NCBI GenBank assembly: GCA_039028335.1
Contig: JBCCIF010000003.1
Coordinates: forward strand, 19,349-83,348
From: Bacteroidota bacterium
Lineage (GTDB): Bacteria > Bacteroidota > Bacteroidia > Flavobacteriales_D > JABDKJ01
Direction: 5' to 3'
Length of the DNA: 64,000 nucleotides
The stretch's first letter is position 1; each line of letters starts with the position of its first letter. This document shows positions 3,844-49,599 of this stretch, piece by piece. The position numbers and the translations under genes were made by a program. The notes below the pieces were generated by a model. The model saw only the letters and a program-made list of their open reading frames with translations. It was not told where the DNA came from and searched no databases.

Positions 3844-4788
3844 TCAATCATACGCTGAGCAAGGAACATATCCTCCACTTCTTCCTGGCCTTGGGCAACT
3901 TATGGCTCCTATAATGATCTCGTGCGTATTCGAGCTATTCAAATTTATTCTTGAAGTTGTATAGTCATAGGCATAAGCGATTGTAAAATAGCGCAAAAAT
4001 TTGAATTTTACCATTGCGGCAATAGCATCCACATTTCTATACGCCAAACCCAATGTTACCGCATCTTTAATATCTACGAGGGCATTTACATCAATGGCAA
4101 AAGGAGAAGCATTAGTCTTTTTAACCAATATAGATGGTCTAAACTGAATCTCTTTGGCGAGTTTCATGGCCTTTCCGTACGTTATGTAATAATGCGGTTC
4201 AAATCGCGTATCGAATCCCACATCTTTAATCCGACCACCCGTTAGATGGAAAATACTCGCTCCGAAAAAAGACTTCTCACTATAAATCCAAATTCCAGGG
4301 TTAAATTCAGGAATAACAAAAACATTTGCGGAAGAAGTTATAGCCGGGTCAGAAGGGTTCTCAACGGACAATTGAGAAGCGTCAAATGAAAACTGCGTCA
4401 ATCCTGTATACAATCCAATAGAGGCAAATCTATTTCTATTGATTGGAAAGTGATATGCATAGGCCAGCAACATGCTTGTCCGACCTAATGGATCTGTTCG
4501 ATCATTTTCTATCATACCTCCTATACCATGCTTGGTTTTATAGGAACTTTTATCCTTCACGCCCATAGGACCATTCAAACTGGCAATGGCTGTTTTAGGC
4601 GAACCTTCAAAGCCCACCCATTGGGTTCTATAACCCAATCGCATATCCATGCATTTCTTGGACCCTGCGACAGCAGGATTAATTGCGAAGTGATTAAAAA
4701 TGTAATGAGTATACTGTGGGGTTTGCTGCCCCATTGAAGCAGCACAAAATAATCCGCAAAAAATGGCTATTACTAAATTCTTCTTCAA
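3844..4788 (-). CDS. PorP/SprF-family type IX secretion system membrane protein
   Basis: 314 aa with a signal peptide followed by the family N-terminal signature QQTPQYTHYIFNHFAINPAVAGS. The length is typical for the family. The TTG start overlaps the upstream stop (TTGA, 4785-4788). Confidence 0.85.
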   Translation of the reverse strand: MKKNLVIAIFCGLFCAASMGQQTPQYTHYIFNHFAINPAVAGSKKCMDMRLGYRTQWVGFEGSPKTAIASLNGPMGVKDKSSYKTKHGIGGMIENDRTDPLGRTSMLLAYAYHFPINRNRFASIGLYTGLTQFSFDASQLSVENPSDPAITSSANVFVIPEFNPGIWIYSEKSFFGASIFHLTGGRIKDVGFDTRFEPHYYITYGKAMKLAKEIQFRPSILVKKTNASPFAIDVNALVDIKDAVTLGLAYRNVDAIAAMVKFKFLRYFTIAYAYDYTTSRINLNSSNTHEIIIGAISCPRPGRSGGYVPCSAYD

Positions 4789-5771
4789 TAGATAATGGTT
4801 ACTGATCCTGTAAATAGGTTCTCGTTTACTTCATCGTCATTCAATTCAATGACGTAATAATAATTTCCAGCAGTCAAAGCATTTCCATTTCGCGTTCCGT
4901 CCCAAGGTGTAGGATATCCAATTGATTTAAAAACCAATTGCCCCCAACGATCGAATACATTTACTGAACACTGAGGGAAATTTTCAATTCGGGTAATCAC
5001 CCAATCATCATTGAAACCATCTCCGTTGGGCGTGAATGCGTCATATACTGTAATGGGAGGAAAAACAAATACCCATACACGCCTTGTCACAACGCAAGGA
5101 CCATTGATAATTTCGACAGTGTACTCTGTGCTTTCTGTAGGAGAGGCAATGGGATCTGAAATAAAGGGATTGCTCAAACTCGCGGCCGGCAGCCAATTGT
5201 ATTGTGTCCCACCTGTTGCTCCTAATTGAGCAGATTGACCACTAATAATAAATTCATCTGGTGAAGCAGTATAATTAAATTCAACACCGTTACCCGATAA
5301 AGCGGGATTAATTCCACATTGAGCTGGATTTGTAATTCCAGGTCCATTTAAGTCTCCATCCACTTGCACATAATAGGTGGTGTTGGCATCTAAGCCTGTA
5401 GCAGAAATTGAAAGTGGGCCTCCACTTGCTGCATTACAGGCCAAATAAGTATAGGGACCATTGCACAAATCGGTAGTTTCGATGATTGCAATTTCTAAAT
5501 CCGTATCGTAGTTCACCGAATCAATACAATCTAAAATATCAATGTCCACGGTTACATCTCCTCCTATATCATTGGTAAAAAATGAAAAATAGAAACTGTT
5601 ATTGGCCGTAAAGCAAGGAGCATCTAATCCGCTTTGTGCGGAGTCCATTGTGTAATTGAGAAAATTATTTCCGAAACACAGCAACTCTGGATTATCACAA
5701 GTTTGAGCTCTGGTTTCAAATAGGAATCCACTCAAAAAAATGCAAAATGTTATACTTATTCTCCTACTCAT
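4785..5771 (-). CDS. Secreted protein with T9SS type B (gliding motility-associated, CHU_C-type) C-terminal domain
   Basis: Signal peptide MSRRISITFCIFLSGFLFETRAQ. The C-terminus FTPNGDGFNDDWVITRIENFPQCSVNVFDRWGQLVFKS...WDGT.NG..L..G.YYYVIEL matches the type B CTD consensus. It sits directly upstream of a PorP/SprF gene. Confidence 0.85.
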   Translation of the reverse strand: MSRRISITFCIFLSGFLFETRAQTCDNPELLCFGNNFLNYTMDSAQSGLDAPCFTANNSFYFSFFTNDIGGDVTVDIDILDCIDSVNYDTDLEIAIIETTDLCNGPYTYLACNAASGGPLSISATGLDANTTYYVQVDGDLNGPGITNPAQCGINPALSGNGVEFNYTASPDEFIISGQSAQLGATGGTQYNWLPAASLSNPFISDPIASPTESTEYTVEIINGPCVVTRRVWVFVFPPITVYDAFTPNGDGFNDDWVITRIENFPQCSVNVFDRWGQLVFKSIGYPTPWDGTRNGNALTAGNYYYVIELNDDEVNENLFTGSVTIIY

Positions 5772-5888: not shown

Positions 5889-6140
5889 CTATGATTCGAA
5901 AACTTCGAATTCAAATTTTTCCATGATTTGGTTGGCTAAGAGCTTCTTACAGGCCTCATCAACTTTACTACGCGCTGCTTCTTCGCTCTCTGCTTCTATC
6001 TGCAAAGTGATATGTTTTCCTATTCGAACATTGCTGATTTCACTCAAACCAAGATTCCCCATGGATGCTGATACAGCTTTTCCTTGTGGGTCAAGTAGAT
6101 TGTCTTGAGGCATAACATCTATTTCAGCTCTAAATTTCAT
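5889..6140 (-). CDS. purS: Phosphoribosylformylglycinamidine synthase subunit PurS
   Basis: MKFRAEIDVMPQDNLLDPQGKAVSASMGNLGL...VRIGKHITLQIEAESEEAA is PurS-like in sequence and size (~83 aa). I prefer the ATG at 6140, which forms ATGA with the pssA stop, over the TTG at 6149 used by the ORF track. Confidence 0.8.
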   Translation of the reverse strand: MKFRAEIDVMPQDNLLDPQGKAVSASMGNLGLSEISNVRIGKHITLQIEAESEEAARSKVDEACKKLLANQIMEKFEFEVFES

Positions 6141-6892
6141 GATGACCAATTTTTAATCAATGATAAAACGATGTACAAAACTACGATAATTGGTAATGCC
6201 AACCACTTCAAAAATACCAACAAAATGAGAGCCGATGTTAACAGAAGGTATTTCCAGACATTGTCTCTGATTGATAAATTCTTGAATTTGAGTCCGAAAA
6301 TGGGAATGTTGGAGATCATTAATAATGAGAAGATCAAAGCTAGAAGGATGAAAAAATATCTTGGATCGGATAAAATCAGCCCAGTTCTTTCTAAAAAGGT
6401 TTTCGGAACATATTGAAAATAAAAGAAACCCGTTAAACCTGTCCAAAATAAAGCATTCGCAGGTGTAGGCAATCCCTTGAAATCTGTCGTTTGGTCTGTC
6501 GCCACGTTAAACTTGGCGAGGCGATAACAGGCAGCAGCAGCTAAACACAGTACTAAGCCGTTCGACACTATTGCGAGATTAAGCACACCCTGCTCTCCTA
6601 TCAAGAATTCATTATCCCATGATTCATCTATATCCGAAACTAAACGCAAAGCCATTAAAGCGGGCACGACACCAAATGTTACCATATCGGCAAGTGAATC
6701 TAATTGCTTACCTATTTCACTTTGCACTTTTAAAGCTCTAGCTACAAAACCATCGAAAAAATCAAAAATTGCACCTATTAACACAAATATAACCGCCAAC
6801 TCAGGACCTTCCGTGATGTAGCAAATCGCTATTACACCGCAAACTAAGTTACCTAAAGTGAAGGCATTAGGAATAAAAGCTTTCCCTTTCAT
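6137..6892 (-). CDS. pssA: CDP-diacylglycerol--serine O-phosphatidyltransferase (CDP-alcohol phosphatidyltransferase family)
   Basis: Carries the CDP-alcohol PT motif DFFDGFVARALKVQSEIGKQLDSLAD. It is a multi-TM protein of 251 aa with the N-terminus IPNAFTLGNL typical of Bacteroidota PssA. Confidence 0.8.
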   Translation of the reverse strand: MKGKAFIPNAFTLGNLVCGVIAICYITEGPELAVIFVLIGAIFDFFDGFVARALKVQSEIGKQLDSLADMVTFGVVPALMALRLVSDIDESWDNEFLIGEQGVLNLAIVSNGLVLCLAAAACYRLAKFNVATDQTTDFKGLPTPANALFWTGLTGFFYFQYVPKTFLERTGLILSDPRYFFILLALIFSLLMISNIPIFGLKFKNLSIRDNVWKYLLLTSALILLVFLKWLALPIIVVLYIVLSLIKNWSS

Positions 6893-7010
6893 TGAAGGCG
6901 AAAATAGAAATAGCTGTGCAATATTTACGGAAAATTGGAAGTTAAAAGAAAGTCTTTTTTGAAACTAAACCGTGTATTGAAAGTACTAATTTTAACTATC
7001 TTTAATCTTC

Positions 7011-8075
7011 ATGCAGAAGTTCAACTTATTATTCATAGCGCTCATTTTCATGAGTTCTTCAGTGCTGGCACAGGCACCCAAATACAGTAATGAATTTTTG
7101 AGTATAGGCGTAGGAGCCCGAGCCTTGGGAATGTCCAATGCCTATGTATCGACAGTAGATGATGTGACTGCAGGTTATTGGAATCCTGCTGGTCTTTTAG
7201 GCGTGAAAAGTGATTTTCAAGTTTCTGCGATGCATGCTGAATATTTTGCTGGGATTGCAAAGTATGACTACGCGGCAATTGCTAAACCTATTGATTCACT
7301 GCAATCATTCGGCATTTCTTTCATCCGATTTGGAGTAGATGATATCCCAAATACAACAGAATTAATTGATGCCAATGGCAATATTGACTATGATAGAATA
7401 ACAACATTTTCTGCTGCAGATTATGCTTTTATATTCTCATACGCTAGAAAGATCAAGAATTTAGATATAGGTGGAAACTTTAAAATCATCCATCGAAAAG
7501 TGGGAGACTTTGGAAAATCTTGGGGCTTTGGTTTAGATGGAGGACTGAAATACAACGTTGGAAAATGGAACCTTGCTTTGATGGCTAGAGATGTTACAAG
7601 CACCTTTAATGCATGGACCTTTGACCTTGATCAAAGCATCATAGATGCTTTTATCCTCACCAATAACGAAATTCCAGACAACAGTGTTGAGATCACATTG
7701 CCTCGTTTAATTTTTGGTGCATCGAGAAAATTTCAATTCAACGAAAATCTATCCCTACGACCTGAATTGAATTTAGATCTAACCACAGATGGTAAAAGAA
7801 ATGTATTGATCAAAACGGATTTAATATCTATCGATCCTCATTTAGGAGCCGAGTTAAATTTCAAAAACACTTTGTTCTTTAGAACGGGAATTGGAAACAT
7901 TCAACAAATTAATGAAGTCAATGGAGGGAAATCGACAACTTTCCAACCCAATCTAGGAATTGGCGTAAAACTGAATAGAATTTCTCTGGATTATGCCTTG
8001 ACTGATATAGGAGATCAATCTGTTGCTTTATACAGCAACATATTTTCCATGAAGGTGGATATATTCAGAAACTGA
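7011..8075 (+). CDS. PorV/PorQ-family outer-membrane beta-barrel protein (T9SS-associated); not assignable to canonical PorV versus a paralogue from sequence alone
   Basis: Signal peptide MQKFNLLFIALIFMSSSVLAQ, then FLSIGVGARALGMSNAYVSTVDDVTAGYWNPAGL, which resembles the PorV/PorQ family N-terminal motif. It is 354 aa. Its stop lies 3 nt before the PorU-like gene. Confidence 0.65.
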   Translation: MQKFNLLFIALIFMSSSVLAQAPKYSNEFLSIGVGARALGMSNAYVSTVDDVTAGYWNPAGLLGVKSDFQVSAMHAEYFAGIAKYDYAAIAKPIDSLQSFGISFIRFGVDDIPNTTELIDANGNIDYDRITTFSAADYAFIFSYARKIKNLDIGGNFKIIHRKVGDFGKSWGFGLDGGLKYNVGKWNLALMARDVTSTFNAWTFDLDQSIIDAFILTNNEIPDNSVEITLPRLIFGASRKFQFNENLSLRPELNLDLTTDGKRNVLIKTDLISIDPHLGAELNFKNTLFFRTGIGNIQQINEVNGGKSTTFQPNLGIGVKLNRISLDYALTDIGDQSVALYSNIFSMKVDIFRN

Positions 8076-8078
8076 TAA

Positions 8079-11000
8079 ATGAAAAATATACTGTCCATAT
8101 TATTTCTGGCCAGTTTTGTTAGCATCAGTGGACAAGACTACGGTAATGAATGGATCAATTATGGGCAAATTTATTATGAGTTTAAGATAGCCGAGGATGG
8201 AGTTTACCGTATTAATCAATCTACATTGCAAAATGCTGGCCTCCCTCTTTCTGCCGTTGATATAAGCAATTTTCAAGTCTTTGCTAAAGAAAAGGAGATA
8301 CCACTCTATGTTTTTGACGAAAACGGAAATGGCACTTTAGATCCCGGAGATTACATTGAGTTTTTTGGAGAACAAAATGACGGCTGGATCGAAGAGGGAC
8401 TTTACGGAGGAGCTGAACTTCAAAACAATCCTTATTACAGCTTATACAATGATACATTGCTTTATTTTCTCACTTGGAATGACACAGATTTGGGTTTGCG
8501 TTTTGAAGAGGAAAACAGTGACAATGTAGAAAGTTTTTCTCCCTTAAGTCATGTTCTCAAATATAGCCTTGTTGAATACACTCAAAATTATTACGAAGGC
8601 CAATTGGATAACGCCAATACCTCTTTGACTGAATACACTCCTGGCGAAGGATGGTCAGGAAATAGATTTGGCAAAGGATTGAATTTGATATTCGATGTAT
8701 CTGTGCCCACTCCAAATGCCTATTCAGGTGGAGGTGCACCGAATGCAATTGTGCGCTCTTCATCTGCGAGCCATTCGGACAGTGGAATAGATAATACAGG
8801 AAATTACAATCACTGGTTATTGGTCAAACATGGCAATACCGAAGTTGCTAATTTGCAATTCGCTGGATATCAATTGAACAATGTTGACTTTACCATTCCT
8901 GCCAATGCACTCGGGGACGCAAATACCACAATTAGGCATGAAGTAGTCGACACAGATAATGATCCCTTATGGACAGGGGTCATAACTGATTATCATTCCG
9001 TGAATTATGTTGACATTACTTATCCGCATACCTTGGATTTCTCAAACTCGTCCTATTTTGAGTTTCAGATTCCATTCAATTTTAATAATGGACTGAGTCG
9101 TATCGATATTGAAAATTTCAATGCCATTGAACCCATTATCTATGTGACATCGAATTCTCCCAAAAGGATTGAAGTAATCAATGACAATGGCATTTTCAAA
9201 GGACTTATTCCAAATCAAAGTGGAAGTATTAATTCGGAATGCGTAGTTATAGATGAAAGTGAGATCAAGATAATTAGTTCGGTAGAAAAAGTGAGTAGCA
9301 GTGGACTATTTACAAATTTTATCAGTAACGAATTAGATTCTGCATTCATTATCATCAGCCATAGTTCATTGATGACCTCTGCTCAAAATTATGCAGGGTA
9401 TCGACAATCTCAAGGACTTGATGTTCTGTTGGTAGATGCAAATGATTTGTATAAGCAATATGGAGGTGGAGTTGAGAAGTGCCCAATAGCCTTTAGACGC
9501 TTTGCCGATCAGTTAATTGACAATTGGTCAAGTTCTCCATCTCATTTGTTTCTCTTGGGCAAATCTATACGTCAAGCTCGAGAATCAACTTTGGGAGCGC
9601 GAAAAGATGAAATTCAATTTCATAAAAATCTCGTTCCCTCTCTCGGATATCCTTGCAGTGATATTTCCATAACGGCTGGCCTAAATTCCACAATACTTGA
9701 ACCGACTATTCCCACTGGAAGGTTGGCGGCTACAAACGATCAACAAGTTTTAGATTACTTATCTAAGGTGATAAAATTTGAGCAGCAGCAGAATGCATTA
9801 TGGAAAAAACACATTTTACATTTTGGAGGGGGGAACAACTTAGACGAACAAACTGACTTCAGAAATTATTTAGAAAATTTTGCCTTCACTGCAGCTGACA
9901 CCTTGTGGGGTGCCAAAGCATTTGGGTTCTACAAAGATTCTTCCTTGCCCATTTCGGTGAATACAAATGACTCTATTGAGTCATTGATTAGTGAAGGCGT
10001 TTCTTTGATGACCTTTTTTGGCCATGCGTATGCAGGAGGATTCGATCAAGATATCGAAAACCCTGCTAATATTGATTGGAATGACAAATTCCCTCTGGTT
10101 GTAGGAAACTCTTGTTTTACAGGTGATATTCATCAACCAGATGCTCCAAGCACAAGCGAAGAATTTGTTCTTTTGGCAGATAAGGGAGCAATTGGATTTT
10201 TATCCTCCGTAAAACTTGGTTATGCACTCAGTTTACAACAGTATACTGGAGAGCTTTATCAGCAATTTGCATCGAAATCTTACAATAAAAGTATAGGTCA
10301 ACAAATTCAGGCAACCATTAAAGAAATTCAGGGTTCAGGTCAAAATTTCTTTACAAAGAATGTGACGCAAAGTATGACATTGCAGGGTGACCCCTCTCTA
10401 GTTTTAAATACTGTACCCAAACCCGATTTGTCCATCTCACTCGAGCAAATTTCTTTTGAACCTCAATTGGTAACTTTACAAGCTGATTCATTTGACGTCA
10501 GAGTTGTGGTTCACAATATAGGTCGAACCACGAATGAAACATTTACAATCGAACTCAATCGTCATTTACCAGGGTCGGTGCAAACGGAGACTTATGCACA
10601 AGAGCTAAATGGCTCCTTCTATTCAGACACTGTCGTTTTTCGTTTGCCTGTTGATCAAGCCAATGGCACTGGAATTAATCTTTTTGACTGTTTCGTTGAC
10701 CTTCCTTCTGATGTTGTTGACGAAATGGATAATTTGAATAACAATACAGTCATTGGAAAGTCTTTAAACATTACGGCAGGAGGTGTCATTCCTATTTTCC
10801 CTTACAACTATGCCGTTTTTCCGAATAATACTGTGACATTGAAGGCCAGTACCGGAGATGTTTTTGCTTCGAATAAATTCTATACTTTTCAGTTGGATAC
10901 GAATGATACATATTCAAGTCCATCATTCTTGTCTTCTACACTAAGCCACCCAGGTGGAGTTATCAATTGGACTCCGCCAATCACATTAAGCGATAGTACA

Positions 11001-13139
11001 GTTTATTTTTGGCGCGTTGGAGAATTAGAAGATGGTCAAGTAGAAAATTGGATCGAAAGCAGCTTTCAATACATCCAAAATAAAGAGGGTTGGGGTCAAG
11101 CCCATTTCAAGCAGTTTAAGAATAACAGGTTCAATTTAATTGAACAAAATATTCCCGATAGAGAATTCGATTTTTTTGATGGAAATAAGGAATTGAATTG
11201 CACTGTTTTTGGCAATTCCATTTCATTAAGCACAGGTTACTCTATAGATGGAGAAGTGCAAGAATATGCCCTTTGTTTTCCTTTACCTGGAATTGCCGTT
11301 GCCGTCATTGATCCTGTAACCCTAGAACCATGGACAACCGGAGAATATAGTTTTGGGAATTTCAATACGTACGATCCCATAAGCGACCAAGGTGTTTGTC
11401 GAAATCGAGCTGAATTGTATTTTCTTTTCAGACAATTTGAAACTGATCAAATGGCTGGCTTAAGAGACATGCTCGAAGACTCTGTTCCTGATGGCCATTA
11501 TATCCTAATTTATTCTTTACGCTACATGAGCCAGGCTGACTGGAATGATCATGCCCCATTTATTTATACCACTTTTAATGATTTGGGGATGAATGAAATT
11601 ACTGCAAATCAGGATTCAGTCCCTTTCATTTTCTTCACGCGCAAGGGGTTTCCTGGAAGCGAATTAAGCGAAATTGGTCTAGAGACCAATTCAGTTATCG
11701 AACTTTCAGGACCACTTGAAATTTCTGGTGAGTTCGGTGACATAACCGCAATTAGTGCTGGACCCACAGCGAATTGGGAAAGCATGCACTGGAAATCTTC
11801 CACACAGGATATTATCAACGAAGACAGCCTAGGAATAGAACTTTTTGGAGTTAATACAAATGGAACAAATCTGTTGTTAGAGAGCTACAGTTCTTTAGCA
11901 GGAGAAGATCTCGATCTTCTTCCCCTGCAAAGCGGAAATCAAATGAGAGCATTTCTAAAAGCGAATATTGCTGATGACTTGAATATGACACCTGCTCAAT
12001 TGGAAAGCTGGCATTTGCTCTATGAATCTGCTCCAGAGTCCGCAATAAATCCTGCTATTTCCTTTGAATTTTATGGAGAAGAAATTCGTGAAGGAGAAGT
12101 TATTCGGTTTCATACTGCAATTGAAAACATTAGCAACAAAGACATGGATAGTCTCCTCGTAAATTATTGGATTCAAGATCAGTCAGGAACGAATCATCCA
12201 ATTGAATATCCGCGTCAAGCACCTTTATTAGCAGGTGAAATTTTGATAGATACCATTAGCGTCAATTCATTTGGTTATCCCGGGCAGAATACCTTTTGGA
12301 TTGAAGTCAACCCGAGAGATCTGACAACTGGAGAATTTGATCAATTGGAACAGTACCACTTTAATAATATTGCTCAGATCCAATTCAACGTTGATGAGGA
12401 CAAAACCAACCCATTATTGGATGTGACTTTTGACGGACTGCACATTCTCGATGGAGAAATAGTCTCACCATCACCTGAAATTCATATAGCATTGGACGAT
12501 GAAAATCCATTTCTCTTGATGAATGAAGAAGCAGATACTTCATTCTTTTCTGTATTTCTTAGTCCAGAAGGCAGCACAGAACCCATACCTATTCGATTCA
12601 GAAATAGCACAGGAGAAGAACTAATGCAATTTGTTCCGGCCAATTCTACAGCTAATAAATCAAGTATATTTTTTCAACCTAAGGAATTGGCTGATGGCAA
12701 CTACACACTTATTGTCATCGCATCAGATAAATCAGGAAATGAAAGCGGAGACATCAACTATAAAATCAGTTTTGAAGTGATCAATGCTTCGATGATTTCT
12801 GAGGTAATGAATTATCCTAATCCCTTTAGCACACGCACACAATTCGTTTTTACTTTGACTGGAAGTGAAATTCCTGATTATTTCAAAATTGAGATTATGA
12901 CAATAAGTGGAAGAGTAGTTAAAGAGATTTTTAAGGAAGACCTTGGAGACTTGCGTATTGGGCGAAACATTACCGACTACTATTGGGATGGAACAGACAA
13001 TTTTGGTGATCAGCTTGCCAATGGAGTCTATCTCTATCGTGTTATTACTCGAATGAACGATTCGGATGTTACTAAAATGGAGAGCAATGTTCAGCAGTTC
13101 TTCAATAATGGCTTTGGGAAGATGTATTTGATGCGTTAA
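8079..13139 (+). CDS. PorU-like peptidase C25 (gingipain-family) T9SS sortase homologue, long form (1686 aa)
   Basis: Has a signal peptide and an N-terminal YGNEWINYGQIYYEFKI..DGVYRI module. The C25-like core has candidate catalytic His (FFGHAYAGG, codon 10023-10025) and Cys (VVGNSCFTGD, codon 10113-10115). The C-terminal type A-like CTD (12807-13136) reads NYPNPFSTRTQFVFTL...NGVYLYRV. Confidence 0.75.
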   Translation: MKNILSILFLASFVSISGQDYGNEWINYGQIYYEFKIAEDGVYRINQSTLQNAGLPLSAVDISNFQVFAKEKEIPLYVFDENGNGTLDPGDYIEFFGEQNDGWIEEGLYGGAELQNNPYYSLYNDTLLYFLTWNDTDLGLRFEEENSDNVESFSPLSHVLKYSLVEYTQNYYEGQLDNANTSLTEYTPGEGWSGNRFGKGLNLIFDVSVPTPNAYSGGGAPNAIVRSSSASHSDSGIDNTGNYNHWLLVKHGNTEVANLQFAGYQLNNVDFTIPANALGDANTTIRHEVVDTDNDPLWTGVITDYHSVNYVDITYPHTLDFSNSSYFEFQIPFNFNNGLSRIDIENFNAIEPIIYVTSNSPKRIEVINDNGIFKGLIPNQSGSINSECVVIDESEIKIISSVEKVSSSGLFTNFISNELDSAFIIISHSSLMTSAQNYAGYRQSQGLDVLLVDANDLYKQYGGGVEKCPIAFRRFADQLIDNWSSSPSHLFLLGKSIRQARESTLGARKDEIQFHKNLVPSLGYPCSDISITAGLNSTILEPTIPTGRLAATNDQQVLDYLSKVIKFEQQQNALWKKHILHFGGGNNLDEQTDFRNYLENFAFTAADTLWGAKAFGFYKDSSLPISVNTNDSIESLISEGVSLMTFFGHAYAGGFDQDIENPANIDWNDKFPLVVGNSCFTGDIHQPDAPSTSEEFVLLADKGAIGFLSSVKLGYALSLQQYTGELYQQFASKSYNKSIGQQIQATIKEIQGSGQNFFTKNVTQSMTLQGDPSLVLNTVPKPDLSISLEQISFEPQLVTLQADSFDVRVVVHNIGRTTNETFTIELNRHLPGSVQTETYAQELNGSFYSDTVVFRLPVDQANGTGINLFDCFVDLPSDVVDEMDNLNNNTVIGKSLNITAGGVIPIFPYNYAVFPNNTVTLKASTGDVFASNKFYTFQLDTNDTYSSPSFLSSTLSHPGGVINWTPPITLSDSTVYFWRVGELEDGQVENWIESSFQYIQNKEGWGQAHFKQFKNNRFNLIEQNIPDREFDFFDGNKELNCTVFGNSISLSTGYSIDGEVQEYALCFPLPGIAVAVIDPVTLEPWTTGEYSFGNFNTYDPISDQGVCRNRAELYFLFRQFETDQMAGLRDMLEDSVPDGHYILIYSLRYMSQADWNDHAPFIYTTFNDLGMNEITANQDSVPFIFFTRKGFPGSELSEIGLETNSVIELSGPLEISGEFGDITAISAGPTANWESMHWKSSTQDIINEDSLGIELFGVNTNGTNLLLESYSSLAGEDLDLLPLQSGNQMRAFLKANIADDLNMTPAQLESWHLLYESAPESAINPAISFEFYGEEIREGEVIRFHTAIENISNKDMDSLLVNYWIQDQSGTNHPIEYPRQAPLLAGEILIDTISVNSFGYPGQNTFWIEVNPRDLTTGEFDQLEQYHFNNIAQIQFNVDEDKTNPLLDVTFDGLHILDGEIVSPSPEIHIALDDENPFLLMNEEADTSFFSVFLSPEGSTEPIPIRFRNSTGEELMQFVPANSTANKSSIFFQPKELADGNYTLIVIASDKSGNESGDINYKISFEVINASMISEVMNYPNPFSTRTQFVFTLTGSEIPDYFKIEIMTISGRVVKEIFKEDLGDLRIGRNITDYYWDGTDNFGDQLANGVYLYRVITRMNDSDVTKMESNVQQFFNNGFGKMYLMR

Positions 13140-13234
13140 TCTCCAATGCTCAAAGAGACCTTGAAATGGAGAATAAAAATGGATAGATAGAAATTCCATC
13201 TGTTTGAAATATATTTGAGGCCTATTATTTCAAC

Positions 13235-15205: not shown

Positions 15206-15997
15206 ATGAAATATTTTTACCTATTTGTTCTAATGATGCTTTCTTCTTCCATTCATGCTGAAAAATATGAAAGGTCTCTTCAAGAAATTGCACAAGAAAT
15301 TGCCCTTTTGGTCGAAAAGCGAGGTTTTGAAAAGGTCGCCATATTAAATTTTCAGTCTATTAATGACAGCCAAGAACATGTCTCTAAACCATTGACCGAA
15401 GATTTTTCGGTGCATTTTACGAATGCAACACATTCACTCAAAATTTATGATCGACAACATATAGAAGCTTTGACGAACGAACTTAAATTGCAGCAAAGCG
15501 GATTGATGGCCCCTCAAACTGCCAAGAAAATTGGCTCTTTCACTGGGGTAGAGGCCATCGTGATCGGCAATTATGCAGTGCACAAGAACAAAGTGAAGCT
15601 ATGGATAAAAGTTATTGAAACCGAGTCTGCTTTTCAGATCGCTATGAAAAACGCACTGCTCCCTTGGCAAGCTAAGAATTACAAAAGCCTCAACAATGAG
15701 AAAGCATCAATTCATTCTTCGAAAATCAACAGTCCCGCAAAAGGAAAAGGAAAACTCAAAATAATCAACCGCAAGGCTTCGCATTTGAGACTAATTCTGA
15801 CAAATGATGAATTTTCTAAAGAAGTAAAAGTCGGCAGAAAATCTGCCATTGAGGTTCTCAACATACCAAGGGGAATTTATTCCTGTGAAATCTATTTTCA
15901 ATCGGGCGATTTATTTCAAAAATTCGATGTGAAAGTGAGTAAAAAAATGGAGCGAATAAAAATTCACGGTTACAGTATTTTTAGCACGATCTACTAG
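15206..15997 (+). CDS. Hypothetical secreted protein (N-terminal FlgO/LpoB-like fold suspected)
   Basis: Has a signal peptide. The pattern VAILNF......SKPLTEDF...IYDRQHIEALTNELKLQQSGLM...AKKIGSFTGVEAIVIGNY resembles FlgO/LpoB-type periplasmic domains. This is weak recognition only. Confidence 0.4.
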   Translation: MKYFYLFVLMMLSSSIHAEKYERSLQEIAQEIALLVEKRGFEKVAILNFQSINDSQEHVSKPLTEDFSVHFTNATHSLKIYDRQHIEALTNELKLQQSGLMAPQTAKKIGSFTGVEAIVIGNYAVHKNKVKLWIKVIETESAFQIAMKNALLPWQAKNYKSLNNEKASIHSSKINSPAKGKGKLKIINRKASHLRLILTNDEFSKEVKVGRKSAIEVLNIPRGIYSCEIYFQSGDLFQKFDVKVSKKMERIKIHGYSIFSTIY

Positions 15998-29282: not shown

Positions 29283-32200
29283 TTAAAATCTAGTACCTAC
29301 AACGCATGTCTTTTTAAATACGCTTAGGCTTCCTTCTAAATCAAAAATTTCAATAAATATGACATAAACACCTAATCGAGCCTTCGTATTCTCATCAGTC
29401 GTTCCATCCCACTTCACCGTTCCCGAAGTCGCCATAATTTCATTTCTCAAAAGTGATTTCACAGGAACGCCTCGACTGTCGTATATGTTAATGGAACCTA
29501 AGTACCCCGACTCATCAAAAACGTAATTGATATTTAAAAAATCATCAAATCCATCATTGTCAGGACTAAATAATTCAGGCTCTAAAGCGACTGAGCTTTC
29601 GGGAATACTTCCTTGAAAAAATTGAGAGTTTGGCAGACCTGGAGTTGCATTTCCAGAAATAGTAGATGCAGAATGCCAATTACTTGGATCATTTGTCACG
29701 CGCTCAAAATCAATCCGTTCCAAAGAAACGCCCTTTACCTCATCCAACAAATTGAAATGATAATCTTCCTGATAGGAGAACTCATCAGAAACTTGCGCGT
29801 CAGGCATCATAAGAATGACCGTTCCTTCATCATTGCTGTAAGTTGGAAAATTATCCAAAGAGAGGAACACATCTCTGTTGCCATTTGGATATGTGTTTTT
29901 AACGGCTTGCGAATCCTCAGATAGCAATACATATGTTCTTGGAAACAAGAGCTTACCCTCTCCTGAAATCAAATTTAAATCTCCTGGAATTCCATTGTCC
30001 ATATTGGCAATTCGCCAGTCTTTTAGACTCAATACCTTGTCTGTCCGGTTGTAAATTTCAACGAAATCTGTACCTCCTTCTGGTGGGTTAAACAAAACTT
30101 CGTTGATTATAACATCCCCGGGATCTGCTTCTTGTGGCAGGGCAAAGCGACCTGTATTTTGGTCAGAAATAATATTACCCAAACAATCGCTAAGCCCTTC
30201 AATACTCAAATTATATATAATTCCTTCTTGTATAGATGGAGCCAATGAAATCTGCAATCGCTTAAGGTCGCTATCTAGAATTTGAGGTAAAATTCCATTG
30301 AGTCCGTTATCAATTGAGATGCTGATAAGATCCGAATTGGCAGCCTCAAGAAATTCATCAAATACAAGGACTATACTTTGATCATCATTGACCAAAATAT
30401 CCAAGAGTTCTGGGCCTTGCAGGTCAGCCTCCTCGGTATAAACCGAATTGATTTCTCCAGGAGTCCCCCCTTGAAAATCAATTGAGGAAGACCAATTGGA
30501 AATTCCACGACACGCTTCATTTAAATTCATCATCTCAAGGCTCCAGCCTCCTTCGCGTTTGTTAGGAGCATGAGTCATCAGGTCATATGCAATTTCGTTT
30601 ATCAATTCAGCCTCTGTATTTAAAAGTTGCACTACTTCTCCAGAGTTGTTGAGGAAAGATGAAGACCAGGGTGTAGCTCCTACAAAATTTTCAAAGGCGA
30701 AAAAGGCCAATTGCTCTTGTGCACTCCCAACAATTAAATATTCGCCTGGTTCTATAAAAGTCCCCGTTGGGATAACAGCATCATTAATTTGGCAATTACC
30801 GAGATTAATAAGATGTGCACTAGCGTTATATAATTCTATATATTCTGCTTCAGGCAAGCCCACAGGGGGACTGGGATCTGACATAATCTCTGTAATCAAT
30901 ACATCCCCAAAAAATGGTTCGAAACCCAATAAAATTTCGACATTGATTGCTTCTGATTCGTTTCCTTCACAATCAAAAACATTTTCCACATTCAAAAGAT
31001 AGTTTGTTGATGGATCTAAACCCTCTGAGAGCCCTAAACGAATCCTGTCCTCATAATTTCCAACTAAGGTGCTTGAAAGTACATCTACTCCATTGTTCAA
31101 TTCATAGGAACCAAATTCGAGAGACAATACGTCCATCGCTTCATTGAATACCAAAACCAAGGATTGCGGACTCTCAAAAAAATAGGACGCTATAGAAGGT
31201 GCCGTGGAATCGGGTGTATCATCAAATACAGAATTTTGTTCGCCAGGTGAACCTCCTAATGAATTTGAACTCACTTTCCAGTTCTCTTGTCCTGAGCACA
31301 TTTTATTTGGGTTAACTCGTTCAAGTGAGAAACCTCCCATAATCGCTTCAGAATTCTCATACCATGAATCCTCATAGACCACGATATCTAAAACAAGGCC
31401 TGTTGAAGATCGGATAGTTAAACTGTCCCCGGTATTTGCCAAAGCAGTGAACGAGGGAATTCCAATTACAGAGCCGAATCCACTTAGTAAGTCTATTTGA
31501 TCTTGATCACAAAGCAGAACGTATTGATTCTGAGTTAATATATAGCTCGGCAACAATTTTTCAGTGCTGGAGTTCACTAGTACCCAATCCTCAAGATCAA
31601 ATACTTCTTCACTTCGATTATGTAGCTCAATGAACTCCACTTCGGGTAAGCCTTGACTTGGTGTCGGATCTGCAAATATTTCATTGAATATCACCGAACC
31701 CTCGTCTGGAATTCCCGGCACAAAAAACATGAATTCTTCGCTTGTACTTTGCATGAAATTTCCTGCAAGATCTGACAGACCGGAAATATTGATGATATAC
31801 GTTTGACCATTTACGAAGGCGGAAGAAAAACTCAAATCAATAACTTCTGGAAAACTCTGATTTACGTTATCAGGACTCCCTATGCCATCATTTACACTAT
31901 AATTATTCGTATTTGCTGCTGTGCTATTCTCTATGGCTTCGTTGAATTCTAGTCTCAATAATTGATTGTTAATCACTGAAATAGTATTTAACTCAGGTGG
32001 AATCGAATCAATAAAAGGGCTTCCAACAACTACAAATTCATCGAAATAAAATTTATCGGATCTAGTTGAAGTATAAGTACACGCCATACCAAAAGCGACA
32101 CACATTAAATGCGCTTCATCCTGAATACTTCCCTGAAGGGCAAAATCAAAATTCCCTAAAGGATCAGCAAACAAGTTCCAGTTACCTTCATCATCTCGTT

Positions 32201-32657
32201 CTGCTCGAACGCGCACATTCACCGAAGGTGTATCGAGAAGATCATCTACTCCATCTATTATCTCGGTCATGTCATTTTCATCTTGCCGATACAATGAGAT
32301 TTCGTCTTCTGTACCTCCAATTCTGACAAAATATCCATTAAGATCCTCAAATAAATTCGAATTGTCACTTACCAGATACACATCGCAATAATTTGAACCA
32401 GAAGGATTAAAATCCATGCGAACAATAAACTCCCATGAGGCATTGTTGATCGCTTCGCTAGAAGTACTTAAAAAAGATTGATCAGCTTGTGCTGGCGCAT
32501 TCAAGTGCAATTCAAAATTACCATCCACTTCAAAGTTTATTTCATCTCCGCTCCAACTTGGATTTTCGGTAAAATCACCATCTGAGAAATCATCTTCAAT
32601 TTGGGCAAGACAATATCCACTTATAAAAAGGAGAATAATTGACAGTGTTCTTTTCAT
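29283..32657 (-). CDS. Lamin-tail-domain (LTD) repeat protein, secreted, with FlgD-Ig/CTD-like C-terminal domain
   Basis: Has a signal peptide and three LTD signatures: VIFNEIFADPTPSQGLPEVEFIELHN, VLITEIMSDPSPPVGLPEAEYIELYN and VIINEVLFNPPEGGTDFVEIYN. Each is preceded by an Ig-like segment. The C-terminus reads FSPDNDGFDDFLNINY...INIYDSRGVPVKSL...WDGT...GVYVIFIEI. Confidence 0.75.
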   Translation of the reverse strand: MKRTLSIILLFISGYCLAQIEDDFSDGDFTENPSWSGDEINFEVDGNFELHLNAPAQADQSFLSTSSEAINNASWEFIVRMDFNPSGSNYCDVYLVSDNSNLFEDLNGYFVRIGGTEDEISLYRQDENDMTEIIDGVDDLLDTPSVNVRVRAERDDEGNWNLFADPLGNFDFALQGSIQDEAHLMCVAFGMACTYTSTRSDKFYFDEFVVVGSPFIDSIPPELNTISVINNQLLRLEFNEAIENSTAANTNNYSVNDGIGSPDNVNQSFPEVIDLSFSSAFVNGQTYIINISGLSDLAGNFMQSTSEEFMFFVPGIPDEGSVIFNEIFADPTPSQGLPEVEFIELHNRSEEVFDLEDWVLVNSSTEKLLPSYILTQNQYVLLCDQDQIDLLSGFGSVIGIPSFTALANTGDSLTIRSSTGLVLDIVVYEDSWYENSEAIMGGFSLERVNPNKMCSGQENWKVSSNSLGGSPGEQNSVFDDTPDSTAPSIASYFFESPQSLVLVFNEAMDVLSLEFGSYELNNGVDVLSSTLVGNYEDRIRLGLSEGLDPSTNYLLNVENVFDCEGNESEAINVEILLGFEPFFGDVLITEIMSDPSPPVGLPEAEYIELYNASAHLINLGNCQINDAVIPTGTFIEPGEYLIVGSAQEQLAFFAFENFVGATPWSSSFLNNSGEVVQLLNTEAELINEIAYDLMTHAPNKREGGWSLEMMNLNEACRGISNWSSSIDFQGGTPGEINSVYTEEADLQGPELLDILVNDDQSIVLVFDEFLEAANSDLISISIDNGLNGILPQILDSDLKRLQISLAPSIQEGIIYNLSIEGLSDCLGNIISDQNTGRFALPQEADPGDVIINEVLFNPPEGGTDFVEIYNRTDKVLSLKDWRIANMDNGIPGDLNLISGEGKLLFPRTYVLLSEDSQAVKNTYPNGNRDVFLSLDNFPTYSNDEGTVILMMPDAQVSDEFSYQEDYHFNLLDEVKGVSLERIDFERVTNDPSNWHSASTISGNATPGLPNSQFFQGSIPESSVALEPELFSPDNDGFDDFLNINYVFDESGYLGSINIYDSRGVPVKSLLRNEIMATSGTVKWDGTTDENTKARLGVYVIFIEIFDLEGSLSVFKKTCVVGTRF

Positions 32658-38425: not shown

Positions 38426-38917
38426 ATGAACCAACAAGAGTTTAGACAAACATTTGAGCAATATTTTGATGCCATTCGGAATTACGTTTATTTCATGAGT
38501 TCGGATGTTGATTTGGCCGAAGATATAGCACAAGACACCTTTGTGAAACTTTGGGATAATCGAGACACAATTATCTTATCTACGGTCAAGTCTTATTTGT
38601 ACACGATAGCTAGAAATCTCACTTTGAATCATATTAAGAGAGACAAGCTGAAATACAATTTTATTGCGCAAACTGAACTTAGACAAGATAATAATTCGCC
38701 AGAGTTTGAGTTGGAGCAAAAAGAGTTCAAAGAGAAATTAGAGGCAGTAATAGCCTCAATTCCAGAGGGCAATAGAGAAGTGTTTTTAATGAATCGAATA
38801 GAAGGAATGAAGTACGCTGAAATTGCAGAGCGATTAGGCTTGAGTGTGAAAGCTGTTGAAAAGAGAATGAGCAAGGCACTGAAAATAATCAGAGAAGAAA
38901 TCGAATTTAAAATTTAG
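38426..38917 (+). CDS. ECF sigma-70 family sigma factor (Bacteroidota FecI-like)
   Basis: Region 2 reads AEDIAQDTFVKLWDN...YLYTIARNLTLNHIKR. Region 4 reads MKYAEIAERLGLSVKAVEKRMSKALKII. Confidence 0.85.
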   Translation: MNQQEFRQTFEQYFDAIRNYVYFMSSDVDLAEDIAQDTFVKLWDNRDTIILSTVKSYLYTIARNLTLNHIKRDKLKYNFIAQTELRQDNNSPEFELEQKEFKEKLEAVIASIPEGNREVFLMNRIEGMKYAEIAERLGLSVKAVEKRMSKALKIIREEIEFKI

Positions 38918-38936: not shown

Positions 38937-39764
38937 ATGCTAGAAGAAGAAAATAAAGATTGGCTTGAAATTACAAAGACGCTAAGCACTCCGTTTACTG
39001 GCGGCAATGAAGATTCTTGGAACGCGATTCAAAACAAGATTCAATCTACTCCAGTCTATTCTCTTCAAGATTATCCCAAAAAGCCTAAGAGAACTTGGCG
39101 TTACTTGACCGCTGCAGCTGCTATTCTTCTTTTTGGTTTCGCTTTGTTTTTCATGAATTCAAAAGGAGAAAAATTCATCGCTCAAGAATCGACTTCAATT
39201 GTATTACCGGATCAAAATAATGTATTCTTATTCAAGGGTTCTGAAATCAAATTTGAAAAGAGGGATGAACAATCATTTATCCAGCTTTCTGGAGGAGCAA
39301 TTTTTGAAGTTGCAAAAGGAAGCGATTTTGTCGTTGAAACAAGCAAAGGAAAAATCAGCGTCTTAGGAACCGTTTTTTCAGTCGAAGAAGGGCTAGAGCA
39401 TATCTTCGTAAATTGTACGGAAGGAAAAGTGAAGTTTGAAGACGCTGAGCGATCAGAAGAAATTGAAAAAGGAGAAGGCCTGAGCATTGGACCCAAACAT
39501 ATGACGAAACGTTCGCTCAATTTGATGGAATTAGAATCACGCAAAAAGGGCGAATTGTTCTTCAGCGAAATGCCCCTAGAGGAAGTTATCTTTCAACTAG
39601 AAAGAGCCTACGACATTAAAGTTCAAAGCAGTATTAATTTAGCTGGGAAAAAATATTCGGGTAATTTTAGCACGAGCAATCTTAAGCAAGCTTTAGAATT
39701 GGTTTGTTTTCCCATGAATTTAGATTACAAAATAAATGGTTCGGTTGTCAAGTTGTATGAATAA
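38937..39764 (+). CDS. FecR-family anti-sigma factor
   Basis: One TM helix (YLTAAAAILLFGFALFF) and the FecR domain pattern LSGGAIFEVAKGSDFVVETSKGKISVLGTVFSV. Confidence 0.8.
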   Translation: MLEEENKDWLEITKTLSTPFTGGNEDSWNAIQNKIQSTPVYSLQDYPKKPKRTWRYLTAAAAILLFGFALFFMNSKGEKFIAQESTSIVLPDQNNVFLFKGSEIKFEKRDEQSFIQLSGGAIFEVAKGSDFVVETSKGKISVLGTVFSVEEGLEHIFVNCTEGKVKFEDAERSEEIEKGEGLSIGPKHMTKRSLNLMELESRKKGELFFSEMPLEEVIFQLERAYDIKVQSSINLAGKKYSGNFSTSNLKQALELVCFPMNLDYKINGSVVKLYE

Positions 39765-39770
39765 AGAAAC

Positions 39771-42422: not shown

Positions 42423-43213
42423 TGCCAAAACAGCTCTTAAAATATTGTTTAGCTTTTGCTCTGTTGTTTATATTTCTTTCTTGTGAGAAAACAGTTACGC
42501 TTACAGAATCGAGAAATAAGACATTAATTATTAGTGCTTTTCCAGAGACTGGACAGAGTATTTCAGATTTTTCAATTCGCAAATTCAATGACAATGGCTC
42601 TTTTACAATTCCAGTCAATGATGCCAATCCGAGAATTATCTGGAAAAACAACAGTTTTGGACTTATCCCTTCTGAAAATCAAGATGGTCTCTATCGATTG
42701 GCTGCAGATAATTTTGAATTCCTTCCTGGAAACGACTATCGCCTTGAATTGAACTACAAAAGCGAGTTCATTACCGGACAGACTTCAATGCCAAATGAAA
42801 TAAACGAATTTGAAATTGCATCGTCCATCATTCAAATTTATAATTCTGAAGGCTTACTTAATCCAGGTACAAATATCAATTGGCGAAAAGAAGACAATAC
42901 AATTTACTCCGTAAGTATTACTCCTTTGGAAAAAGAAGGTGAGAATTTAATTTCTTTTCCTGAACTAAGTCAAAATCAAATAGACGATGCAAGAAATAGT
43001 CTTGACAATCCCTTTTCATCTAGTGCTTTCACTATTCCTGCAGCTGCATTTGAATACTATGGAGACAATGTGATTGAGATTATCGCAGTAGACGAGCGTT
43101 TCGAAGAGTTTTTCGATCTCAACGAGAACGGGACCACTTTTTCCAATATCAAAAATGGGAAGGGATATTTTATTGGCATCAGCAAGTTCAGTGTCATTGT
43201 AAAAGTCGAGTAG
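42422..43213 (+). CDS. Lipoprotein, DUF4249-like (called mainly by context downstream of the TonB-dependent receptor)
   Basis: The GTG start overlaps the receptor stop by 1 nt (TAGTG). It has the lipobox FIFLSC. Its position in the sigma/FecR/receptor cassette is typical for DUF4249. Confidence 0.5.
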   Translation: MPKQLLKYCLAFALLFIFLSCEKTVTLTESRNKTLIISAFPETGQSISDFSIRKFNDNGSFTIPVNDANPRIIWKNNSFGLIPSENQDGLYRLAADNFEFLPGNDYRLELNYKSEFITGQTSMPNEINEFEIASSIIQIYNSEGLLNPGTNINWRKEDNTIYSVSITPLEKEGENLISFPELSQNQIDDARNSLDNPFSSSAFTIPAAAFEYYGDNVIEIIAVDERFEEFFDLNENGTTFSNIKNGKGYFIGISKFSVIVKVE

Positions 43214-49300: not shown

Positions 49301-49599
49301 CTGATTGGCTCGATCCTGATGATTGTAACATAGGCCTCATAATTCCTCAAGGGTTCTCTCCAAATGGAGACTTGAATAATGACATTTGGGTGATTGATGG
49401 ATTGGAAAACTTCCCGAATAATCAAGTCTATATATTCAATCGTTGGGGAACACCATTGGGTGAGTTCAGTCCATATCAAAATGACTGGGATGGCACCTAT
49501 GACGGAAAGGCACTTCCAACGGGGACCTATTACTATATGTTGTACACAGAACCCGGATCAGAACCAATTTCAGGTTGGGTTTATATAATCAATGATTAA
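43312..49599 (+). CDS. Giant (2095 aa) multidomain T9SS type B CTD surface protein (adhesin-like)
   Basis: Domain order as read from the sequence:
- Signal peptide.
- Two Cys/Asp 'ICG.G.D.D..G..DC.D..C' motifs.
- A beta-propeller-like module.
- One SprB-like repeat.
- Six cadherin/Ig-like ~95-aa domains, arranged as a duplicated triplet.
- A ~706-aa Asp-rich TSP3-like array.
- C-terminus [32 protein letters not shown]...[19 protein letters not shown], a type B CTD at 49339-49596. Confidence 0.9.
45445..47208 (+). repeat. Intragenic tandem duplication of a ~885-bp (295-aa) three-domain block
   Basis: Unit 1 starts with [15 protein letters not shown] at 45445 and unit 2 with [15 protein letters not shown] at 46330. 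The units align colinearly at roughly two-thirds amino-acid identity by eye. An example of a shared segment is DYIPPP(E/D)YNGADT(V/L)IY(L/E)[11 protein letters not shown](S/T)[12 protein letters not shown]. Confidence 0.85.
47209..49326 (+). repeat. Asp-rich thrombospondin type 3-like (calcium-binding DxDxDG) repeat array
   Basis: At least 11 copies of D(L/I/F)DSD(N/D)D(G/T)..D..E are present (e.g. nt 47341, 47655, 47893, 47998, 48266, 48440, 48632, 48739, 48913, 49100, 49209). They are interleaved with D.DGDG.PD motifs, giving roughly ten 35-60-aa super-repeats. Confidence 0.85.

Follow-up and report, generated by a model that had tools for sequence, protein, structure and literature searches.

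A PorV2–PorU2 gene pair in a Bacteroidota genome, a predicted paralogue of the type IX secretion module PorU–PorV

A 64,000-nucleotide stretch of contig JBCCIF010000003.1 from a Bacteroidota bacterium (the window) carries two adjacent genes, porV2 and porU2, whose predicted products are an outer-membrane barrel and a long C25-family cysteine peptidase related to PorV and PorU from type IX secretion systems (T9SS). Judged by curated profile models, the two proteins are members of the PorV2/PorU2 family of NCBI and do not differ materially from it. On the same grounds, this family is a true paralogous module, distinct from the canonical PorU–PorV pair, a point that the genome of Fluviicola taffensis settles at the family level. 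By analogy with the attachment complex of Porphyromonas gingivalis, we lean towards a reading in which PorV2 serves PorU2 as its anchor on the cell surface, via the PorU-type C-terminal domain (CTD) of the peptidase.

Family membership and relation to canonical PorU–PorV

The two open reading frames (ORFs) lie on the same strand and are separated by 3 nt, with the junction reading TGA TAA ATG, so that their coordinates, orientation and spacing are as the first-pass annotation of the window had given them. The porV2 product contains the PorV/PorQ-type motif FLSIGVGARALGMSNAYVS...YWNPAGL and scores 112.8 bits with the general PorV/PorQ family model (cut-off 90). With the NCBIfam model NF052325 (PorVQ2, 'putative type IX sorting system protein PorV2') it reaches 519.5 bits against a cut-off of 325, where residues 8-351 align on positions 8-353 of the 354 in the model, and it remains under the cut-offs of the models for PorQ (NF033711, 79.2 bits, cut-off 220) and PorV (NF033710, 43.1 bits, cut-off 250). 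The peptidase scores 689.8 bits (cut-off 450) with NF052324 (PorU_rel_Nterm, 'putative type IX secretion system sortase PorU2'), a model that covers the N-terminal ~880 residues and on which residues 5-888 align with positions 4-879 of 879. By comparison, it obtains 229.4 bits (cut-off 420) with the canonical PorU model NF033707, only positions 7-759 of whose 1095 are matched. Both NF052324 and NF052325 are curated equivalog models. The profile classification that had been proposed as a check therefore passes the pair as PorU2 and PorV2 and fails it as canonical PorU, PorV or PorQ.

Proteins identical to those of the window, including a 100% identical PorU2, have been deposited at NCBI from a metagenome-assembled genome (MAG) of a "Bacteroidota bacterium", where the peptidase is still called 'C25 family cysteine peptidase' and the barrel 'PorV/PorQ family protein', both of them older, generic names. 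The names PorU2 and PorV2 are used by RefSeq and UniRef for homologues from Brumimicrobium, Fluviicola and Fulvivirga. That the pair represents a second sorting-type module is thus already stated at the database level, by the NCBIfam models and the RefSeq names. A motif search found PorV2 motifs to be absent from the PeerJ T9SS data sets.

The inference of the first-pass annotation that the pair is a paralogous module is borne out by these scores and by the chromosome of F. taffensis DSM 16823 (CP002542.1; 4,633,577 bp), which carries both pairs ~100 kb apart. The canonical genes are Fluta_2550 (PorU) and Fluta_2551 (PorV), with separate genes for PorQ (Fluta_2759) and PorZ (Fluta_1377) (PMC7323717, supplementary data). 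PorV2 (AEA44445.1), identified by exact-cluster look-up of a Fluviicola PorV2, is encoded on the same chromosome. The second pair, at 2.83-2.85 Mb, is arranged as purS and a pssA-like gene on the minus strand followed by divergent porV2 (367 aa) and porU2 (1732 aa). At 2.94-2.96 Mb, murF, a gldJ-like gene and porP/sprF on the minus strand are followed by divergent porU (1294 aa) and porV (420 aa). Each of the four F. taffensis proteins passes its own curated model only, with 709.8 bits for PorU2, 482.1 for PorV2, 1216.4 for PorU and 404.9 for PorV. PorV2 and canonical PorV are also both present in F. chungangensis. Across genomes, PorU2 proteins are 37-52% identical from end to end, whereas PorU2 and the canonical PorU encoded alongside it share only a high-scoring segment pair of 28% identity over 229 aa, so that the paralogy is old and no lineage-specific insertion.

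The order and size given for canonical loci in the first-pass annotation (porU then porV, with PorU of ~1150-1300 aa) fit Fluviicola, where porU of 1288-1299 aa precedes porV of 420-423 aa. The length of the window peptidase, by contrast, is not the peculiarity that it had been taken for: full-length PorU2 representatives of 50%-identity clusters span ~1600-1810 aa, so the extra ~400 aa are the norm of the family. It is extremely improbable that the window pair is a canonical porU–porV, merely inverted in order and lengthened by an insertion specific to its lineage, as the PorU-like domain order and the homology of the N-terminal, catalytic and C-terminal parts could be taken to suggest, since both window proteins fall under the canonical cut-offs, PorU2 orthologues of different orders are far closer to each other than to the canonical PorU of their own genome, the long form is family-wide, and the F. 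taffensis chromosome, with both pairs scoring cleanly with their own models, refutes it at the family level.

Catalytic domain, insert and C-terminal module of PorU2 and fold of PorV2

Within the C25 domain of PorU2, His649 and Cys679, which had been proposed as the catalytic candidates and are 30 residues apart, are both invariant in 120/120 of the closest homologues. In a family-profile alignment with P. gingivalis PorU (PDB 6ZA2; E 5e-15), His649 is matched with the His of GHGG and Cys679 with the Cys of ITATC. The latter corresponds to the catalytic Cys690, because Arg722 of PorU is stated to lie 32 residues past the catalytic Cys (PMC4560394). On the evidence of these alignments, the porU2 product is a C25 cysteine peptidase whose His/Cys pair is intact, invariant and homologous to the pair in PorU. 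The surrounding motifs are too different to be captured by one DNA pattern, reading GHGGE...T.TC[ED]F in PorU and FFGHA...GN[SGA]C[YF][TS]G in PorU2.

Arg722 of P. gingivalis PorU has been proposed as a sortase-like hallmark that distinguishes its active site from those of the gingipains (PMC4560394). The position of PorU2 aligned with it is K712 (10212-10214), occupied among the 120 homologues by Lys (78), Asp (23), Glu (5) or Gln (4), and no Arg is invariant within ±7 residues of it, with an alignment that is possibly off by one or two positions. The residue at K712 is variable across the family, 65% of homologues having Lys and 23% Asp or Glu, and the PorU2 family may be divisible into sub-types with differing active-site chemistry.

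The relation of PorU2 to PorU extends to both ends of the protein. In a BLASTP comparison with F. taffensis PorU, the N-terminal domains of PorU2 (residues 22-506) align on residues 168-624, the catalytic region aligns with the His and Cys included, and the C-terminal module (residues 1441-1671) aligns on residues 1075-1291 with 30% identity. A stretch of ~600 residues between the catalytic and C-terminal parts is left unaligned, and this insert accounts for the extra length of PorU2 over canonical PorU. An AlphaFold2 (AF2) model of residues 780-1450 (mean pLDDT 89) contains a string of beta-sandwiches and a small alpha/beta element. When the insert was compared with the PDB using Foldseek, the matches were solely generic multi-beta-sandwich arrays of the macroglobulin/immunoglobulin (Ig) type (TM < 0.2), and neither a propeller nor a recognisable catalytic or carbohydrate-binding module was found. 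A fused PorZ-like beta-propeller, considered as an identity for the insert, was accordingly rejected, as the model and the structural matches comprise beta-sandwich domains only.

The C-terminal module ends in a CTD that scores 24.5 bits with the type A model TIGR04183 (residues 1579-1664), borderline but above the cut-off of 23, in keeping with the type A-like CTD ascribed to the protein in the first-pass annotation. As it also aligns with the CTD region of PorU 6ZA2 in the family profile, the sequence comparison identifies the PorU2 CTD as specifically PorU-CTD-like. When mean identity to the window PorU2 is calculated by region, the CTD is the best conserved (61%), followed by the preceding Ig-like domain (50%), the catalytic domain (46%), the insert (39%) and the N-terminal part (36%). 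A 155-aa ORF, antisense to the 3' end of porU2 (12732-13199, minus strand), is most likely spurious, because it lies inside the CTD, the most conserved part of the gene.

The AF2 model of PorV2 is a beta-barrel (pTM 0.70, pLDDT 69). Its best matches among solved structures are two PorV chains of F. johnsoniae translocon complexes (8gl6_F and 6h3i_F; E 5e-12, TM 0.62), with FadL next (Foldseek), and a PorV2 family profile searched against all PDB sequences with E values up to 10 returned PorV as the sole match (E 3.3e-4). The model and these matches show that porV2 encodes an outer-membrane barrel with a predicted PorV/FadL fold. PorV2 homologues are 61-85% identical. PorV2 has in common with BamG, a FadL-like barrel from the BAM complex of Bacteroidota (PMC12578637), the 14-stranded FadL fold and a wide occurrence in the phylum. 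However, BamG has no detectable sequence relation to PorV2, and the structural likeness of the BAM chains 9hiv_F and 9hjm_F to PorV2 is weak (TM 0.44-0.47), such that the PorV chains match better. As the PDB-wide profile search returned PorV and not BamG, the identification of PorV2 with BamG was rejected.

Taken as a pair, PorV2 and PorU2 are closest to the characterised canonical PorU–PorV (P. gingivalis PG0026/PG0027, F. johnsoniae Fjoh_1556/1555 and F. taffensis Fluta_2550/2551). Shared features are the aligned His/Cys C25 peptidase, the PorU-like N-terminal domains, the PorU-type module of Ig-like domain and CTD, a partner with the 14-stranded PorV fold, and two adjacent and co-oriented genes. 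The pair differs in that the barrel gene comes first, the window barrel is shorter (354 aa versus 420), PorU2 contains the ~600-aa beta-sandwich insert and does not conserve an equivalent of Arg722, and the neighbours are purS and a pssA-like gene rather than gldJ and porP. The proposed PorV2–PorU2 arrangement would resemble PorZ–PorQ in principle, in that one specific CTD protein, its CTD uncleaved, is retained by a PorV-family barrel dedicated to it (PMC10202324). PorV2 is also PorQ-sized and scores slightly higher on the PorQ than on the PorV model (79 versus 43 bits), yet it remains under the PorQ cut-off, and PorU2, unlike PorZ, is a peptidase rather than a beta-propeller carrier of anionic lipopolysaccharide (A-LPS). 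The gingipains RgpB and Kgp (MEROPS C25) have in common with PorU2 the Pfam Peptidase_C25 domain, the His/Cys dyad and T9SS export by a CTD, but were not retrieved from the PDB by the PorU2 profile, whereas PorU was, and the architecture and barrel partner of PorU2 are likewise PorU-like.

Distribution, gene neighbourhood and proposed role of the pair

A search of species-representative genomes with a PorV2-specific DNA motif gave at least 120 matches, and PorV2 is encoded in 120/120 of those sampled. Among the matches listed are, within the Flavobacteriales, Crocinitomicaceae (Fluviicola, Crocinitomix, Brumimicrobium), Cryomorphaceae, Vicingaceae and Parvicellaceae, and, in other orders, Chitinophagales, Cytophagales (Cyclobacteriaceae, Rhodocytophaga, Fulvivirga), Sphingobacteriales and many Bacteroidales MAGs, so that the PorV2/PorU2 family spans at least five orders. 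No named Flavobacteriaceae genus is among the matches listed and one record is titled 'Flavobacteriaceae bacterium', which is suggestive only, the motif being exact. The region homologous to PorU is found at E≤1e-30 in 1722 representatives of 50%-identity clusters, a count that includes canonical PorU, and the best 150 representatives in the PorU2 search are all long forms of the PorU2 type. PorV2 also occurs on contigs of three MAGs labelled Verrucomicrobia, Comamonadaceae and Oscillospiraceae; these are more likely mis-binned Bacteroidota contigs than a true occurrence outside the phylum.

In most lineages, porV2 and porU2 are co-oriented and nearly abut. Counting, on coordinates aligned by hidden Markov models (HMMs), the loci in which the relevant side of porV2 is visible, porU2 lies directly downstream on the same strand in 65/93, namely 24/27 in Flavobacteriales, 8/8 in Chitinophagales, 5/5 in Cytophagales and 3/17 in Bacteroidales. 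A divergent pssA-like gene adjoins porV2 in 47/97 loci (Flavobacteriales 23/28, Chitinophagales 4/10, Cytophagales 0/7, Bacteroidales 11/17), and it tracks PorV2 rather than PorU2. The full block of purS and the pssA-like gene on the minus strand with divergent porV2 and porU2 on the plus strand is present in the window and in seven independent loci with varying outer flanks. A Pfam PurS gene occupies the same position in five of the seven, and the purS HMM matched 44/120 sampled chunks. A scan of sigma-70 promoters and terminators gave counts at or below the shuffle expectation, using a consensus that is unsuited to Bacteroidota.

In the P. gingivalis attachment complex, the CTD of PorU is retained on PorV and that of PorZ on PorQ (PMC10202324), and it is by analogy with these two pairs that we suggest a retained PorU2 CTD docked on PorV2. 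PorU2 would be exported through the T9SS by its PorU-type CTD, which would then not be removed but would dock on the cognate barrel. The 61% conservation of the CTD matches the 61-85% identity among PorV2 proteins, as would be expected for a retained interface. The beta-sandwich array would hold the peptidase domain above the membrane at the cell surface, where the substrates of PorU2 would be some of the T9SS cargo proteins or other proteins of the surface, cleaved either with transfer to an acceptor in the manner of a sortase or by hydrolysis alone.

Several observations weigh against this proposal. Since no equivalent of Arg722 is conserved, transpeptidase chemistry is not assured for PorU2, and our confidence in a sortase-like reaction is lower for that reason. 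The AF2 model of PorV2 is of moderate confidence only. In addition, porV2 stands without an adjacent porU2 in 28/93 loci (~30%), including 14/17 in Bacteroidales. Sequence inspection identified the genes that follow porV2 in loci lacking porU2 as deoC-like, serine acetyltransferase-like, lnt and alcohol dehydrogenase; such orphan barrels next to housekeeping genes indicate that PorV2 may have a role that is independent of PorU2. Finally, in the searchable literature neither the PorU2/PorV2 names nor experimental work on the family were found, the matches being superscript artefacts or unrelated.

Given the missing Arg, which in PorU is thought to favour an amine nucleophile, PorU2 might rather be a hydrolytic protease of the cell surface, engaged for example in nutrient acquisition or in the maturation and shedding of surface proteins, which PorV2 merely tethers. 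The C25 family indeed includes true proteases, the gingipains, and long beta-sandwich arrays are typical of surface enzymes held off the membrane. We nevertheless consider this unlikely: overall, and in its N-terminal domains and C-terminal module too, PorU2 is homologous to PorU rather than to the gingipains, and PorU was the only protein returned by the PDB profile search; the strict pairing of PorU2 with its own barrel of the PorV family parallels the attachment complex; and the family is kept across orders of very different lifestyle, which points to a housekeeping role in the envelope rather than to nutrition.

The orphan loci bear on a second alternative, in which PorV2 is the primary conserved unit, with an envelope or lipid role linked to the divergent pssA-like gene, and PorU2 is a lineage-specific passenger anchored on it. 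PorV2 is far better conserved than PorU2, FadL-fold barrels are channels for lipids or hydrophobic substrates, the pssA-like neighbour is kept in Bacteroidales even without porU2 as well as in Flavobacteriales, and the orphan barrels still exceed the PorV2 cut-off, with 465-495 bits for the three that were scored (L130, L187 and L239). However, the pssA linkage is absent from the Cytophagales loci and partial in Chitinophagales, although porU2 is always adjacent there. Moreover, a conserved order of genes need not reflect a functional link, genomes with a seemingly orphan porV2 may carry porU2 at another locus, and PorV2 is not the BAM subunit BamG. We therefore regard a passenger role for PorU2 as somewhat less likely still than that of a tethered hydrolase. 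Besides the three scored, the orphan porV2 loci include L165, L179, L183, L197, L206, L210, L211, L215 and L242.

The pssA-like neighbour also permits a reading in which PorV2–PorU2 forms a second attachment system with a different acceptor, for example an aminophospholipid (phosphatidylserine or phosphatidylethanolamine) supplied by the pssA-like enzyme, such that the FadL-fold barrel would present the amine of the lipid head group to the surface peptidase. Such a system would resemble the archaeosortase ArtA, which depends on PssA/PssD, and would, if true, account for the anchoring of T9SS cargo in lineages without A-LPS of the P. gingivalis type, but we hold it to be very improbable.

If PorV2–PorU2 is indeed a second complex for surface sorting or processing, two enzymes of the PorU type operate in many Bacteroidota of the environment and the rumen, and the models of T9SS cargo maturation derived from P. 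gingivalis and F. johnsoniae are incomplete. Being large, present in several orders and experimentally uncharacterised, the family is a reasonable target for knockout, an opportunity already flagged by the curated names of NCBI. The window locus itself adds nothing distinctive to the family.

Type B cargo genes and other features of the window

The first-pass annotation had placed the pair in the context of two porP/sprF genes and at least four genes for cargo with type B CTDs, and had proposed it as the missing machinery for processing or attaching type B CTDs, which would act with PorP/SprF-like proteins. The two porP/sprF genes are confirmed (Table 1), whereas the cargo genes amount to three firm assignments and two near threshold. 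The fifth of these, a probable type B-like gene, has a product for which no NCBIfam match was found.

The proposed role is not borne out by the family, and we judge it very unlikely. It draws on the two porP/sprF genes of the window and its type B cargo genes, three to five in number, with one cargo–porP pair ~1.2 kb upstream of porV2 on the far side of purS and pssA, and on a weak, sub-threshold CHU_C match of the PorU2 CTD (18.5 bits, cut-off 27). Across the 120 sampled PorV2 loci, however, type B CTD genes were detected in 2/120 and porP/sprF in 0/120, using neighbourhood HMMs of limited sensitivity that were built from the window's own sequences, and precomputed Pfam annotation of six PorU2 loci of 20-25 kb contains no type B CTD or PorP genes. 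The cluster in the window is explained by, and roughly in line with, the density of cargo genes in the lineage: F. taffensis encodes ~230 CTD proteins in 4.63 Mb, so that 3.2 are expected per 64 kb and the probability of six or more is ~0.10. The lack of a named Flavobacteriaceae genus among the 120 PorV2-bearing species sampled also speaks against it, albeit suggestively only.

The premise that a type B processing enzyme is missing is itself weak. The type B protein PG1035 of P. gingivalis retains its CTD, carries no A-LPS modification and is anchored by PorP in a manner independent of PorU and PorV, and SprB binds SprF (PMC9143113). According to a 2023 review, type B CTDs probably remain uncleaved (PMC10202324). 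The published work indicates that type B proteins are anchored by PorP-like proteins without PorU/PorV (PMC9143113, PMC10202324). The question of type B anchoring is made no more testable through the window locus.

In six Fluviicola loci, including that of F. taffensis (CP002542.1, 2,939,332-2,956,594), the canonical porU–porV pair divergently adjoins porP/sprF and a gldJ-like gene with an FGE-sulfatase domain, next to murF. It is therefore the canonical sortase locus, and not that of PorU2, which is linked to a PorP-family gene, a further point against a type B role for PorU2.

Table 1. Features of the window and of the porV2–porU2 locus (positions are those of the window).
Feature	Position	Strand	Description
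PorP/SprF gene	3844-4788	-	
Type B cargo gene, firm	4785-5771	-	
purS	5889..6149	-	86 aa; in the conserved purS/pssA-like/porV2/porU2 block
pssA-like gene	6137..6892	-	CDP-alcohol phosphatidyltransferase; TIGR00473 pssA 95.1 bits, just under cut-off 107
Intergenic region, pssA-like to porV2	6893..7010	.	118 bp, 72% AT, divergent; presumed to hold both promoters
porV2	7011..8075	+	354 aa; predicted outer-membrane beta-barrel, PorV/PorQ (FadL-like) superfamily, N-terminal signal peptide
porU2	8079..13139	+	1686 aa; predicted secreted C25-family cysteine peptidase, paralogue of the T9SS sortase PorU
C25 peptidase catalytic domain, aa 423-776	9345..10406	+	Pfam PF01364 Peptidase_C25, E 2.5e-55
His649 codon	10023-10025	+	GHAYAGG; codon checked
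Cys679 codon	10113-10115	+	VVGNSCFTGD; codon checked
PorU2-specific insert, ~aa 820-1440	10536..12398	+	Ig/macroglobulin-like beta-sandwich array and one small alpha/beta element
C-terminal Ig-like domain and PorU-type CTD, aa 1441-1686	12399..13136	+	Predicted T9SS export signal, proposed PorV2 docking domain
PorU2 CTD, ~aa 1576-1686	12804-13136	+	Part of the C-terminal module
Probable fifth type B-like cargo gene	29283-32657	-	1124 aa; three Lamin Tail Domains, Big_5 Ig-like, C-terminal CHU_C 26.1 bits (cut-off 27)
FecR-like anti-sigma gene	38937-39764	+	With the next gene (block 38937-43213), directly upstream of the 2095-aa cargo gene and its porP/sprF partner (43312-50542)
TonB-dependent-receptor-like gene	39771-42422	+	STN, CarbopepD_reg and Plug domains; upstream of the 2095-aa cargo gene
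Type B cargo gene, firm	43312-49599	+	2095 aa
PorP/SprF gene	49592-50542	+	
Type B cargo gene, firm	50733-52670	+	
Type B cargo gene, near threshold	59652-63914	-	

Elsewhere in the window, a 163-aa ORF at 38426-38917 may encode the extracytoplasmic function (ECF) sigma factor that matches the FecR-like gene. Downstream of arginase and ctlX genes, a gene at 15206-15997 on the plus strand encodes a 263-aa signal-peptide protein that belongs to no NCBIfam family and has weak CsgG/FlgO-like matches (23.4 and 20.4 bits).

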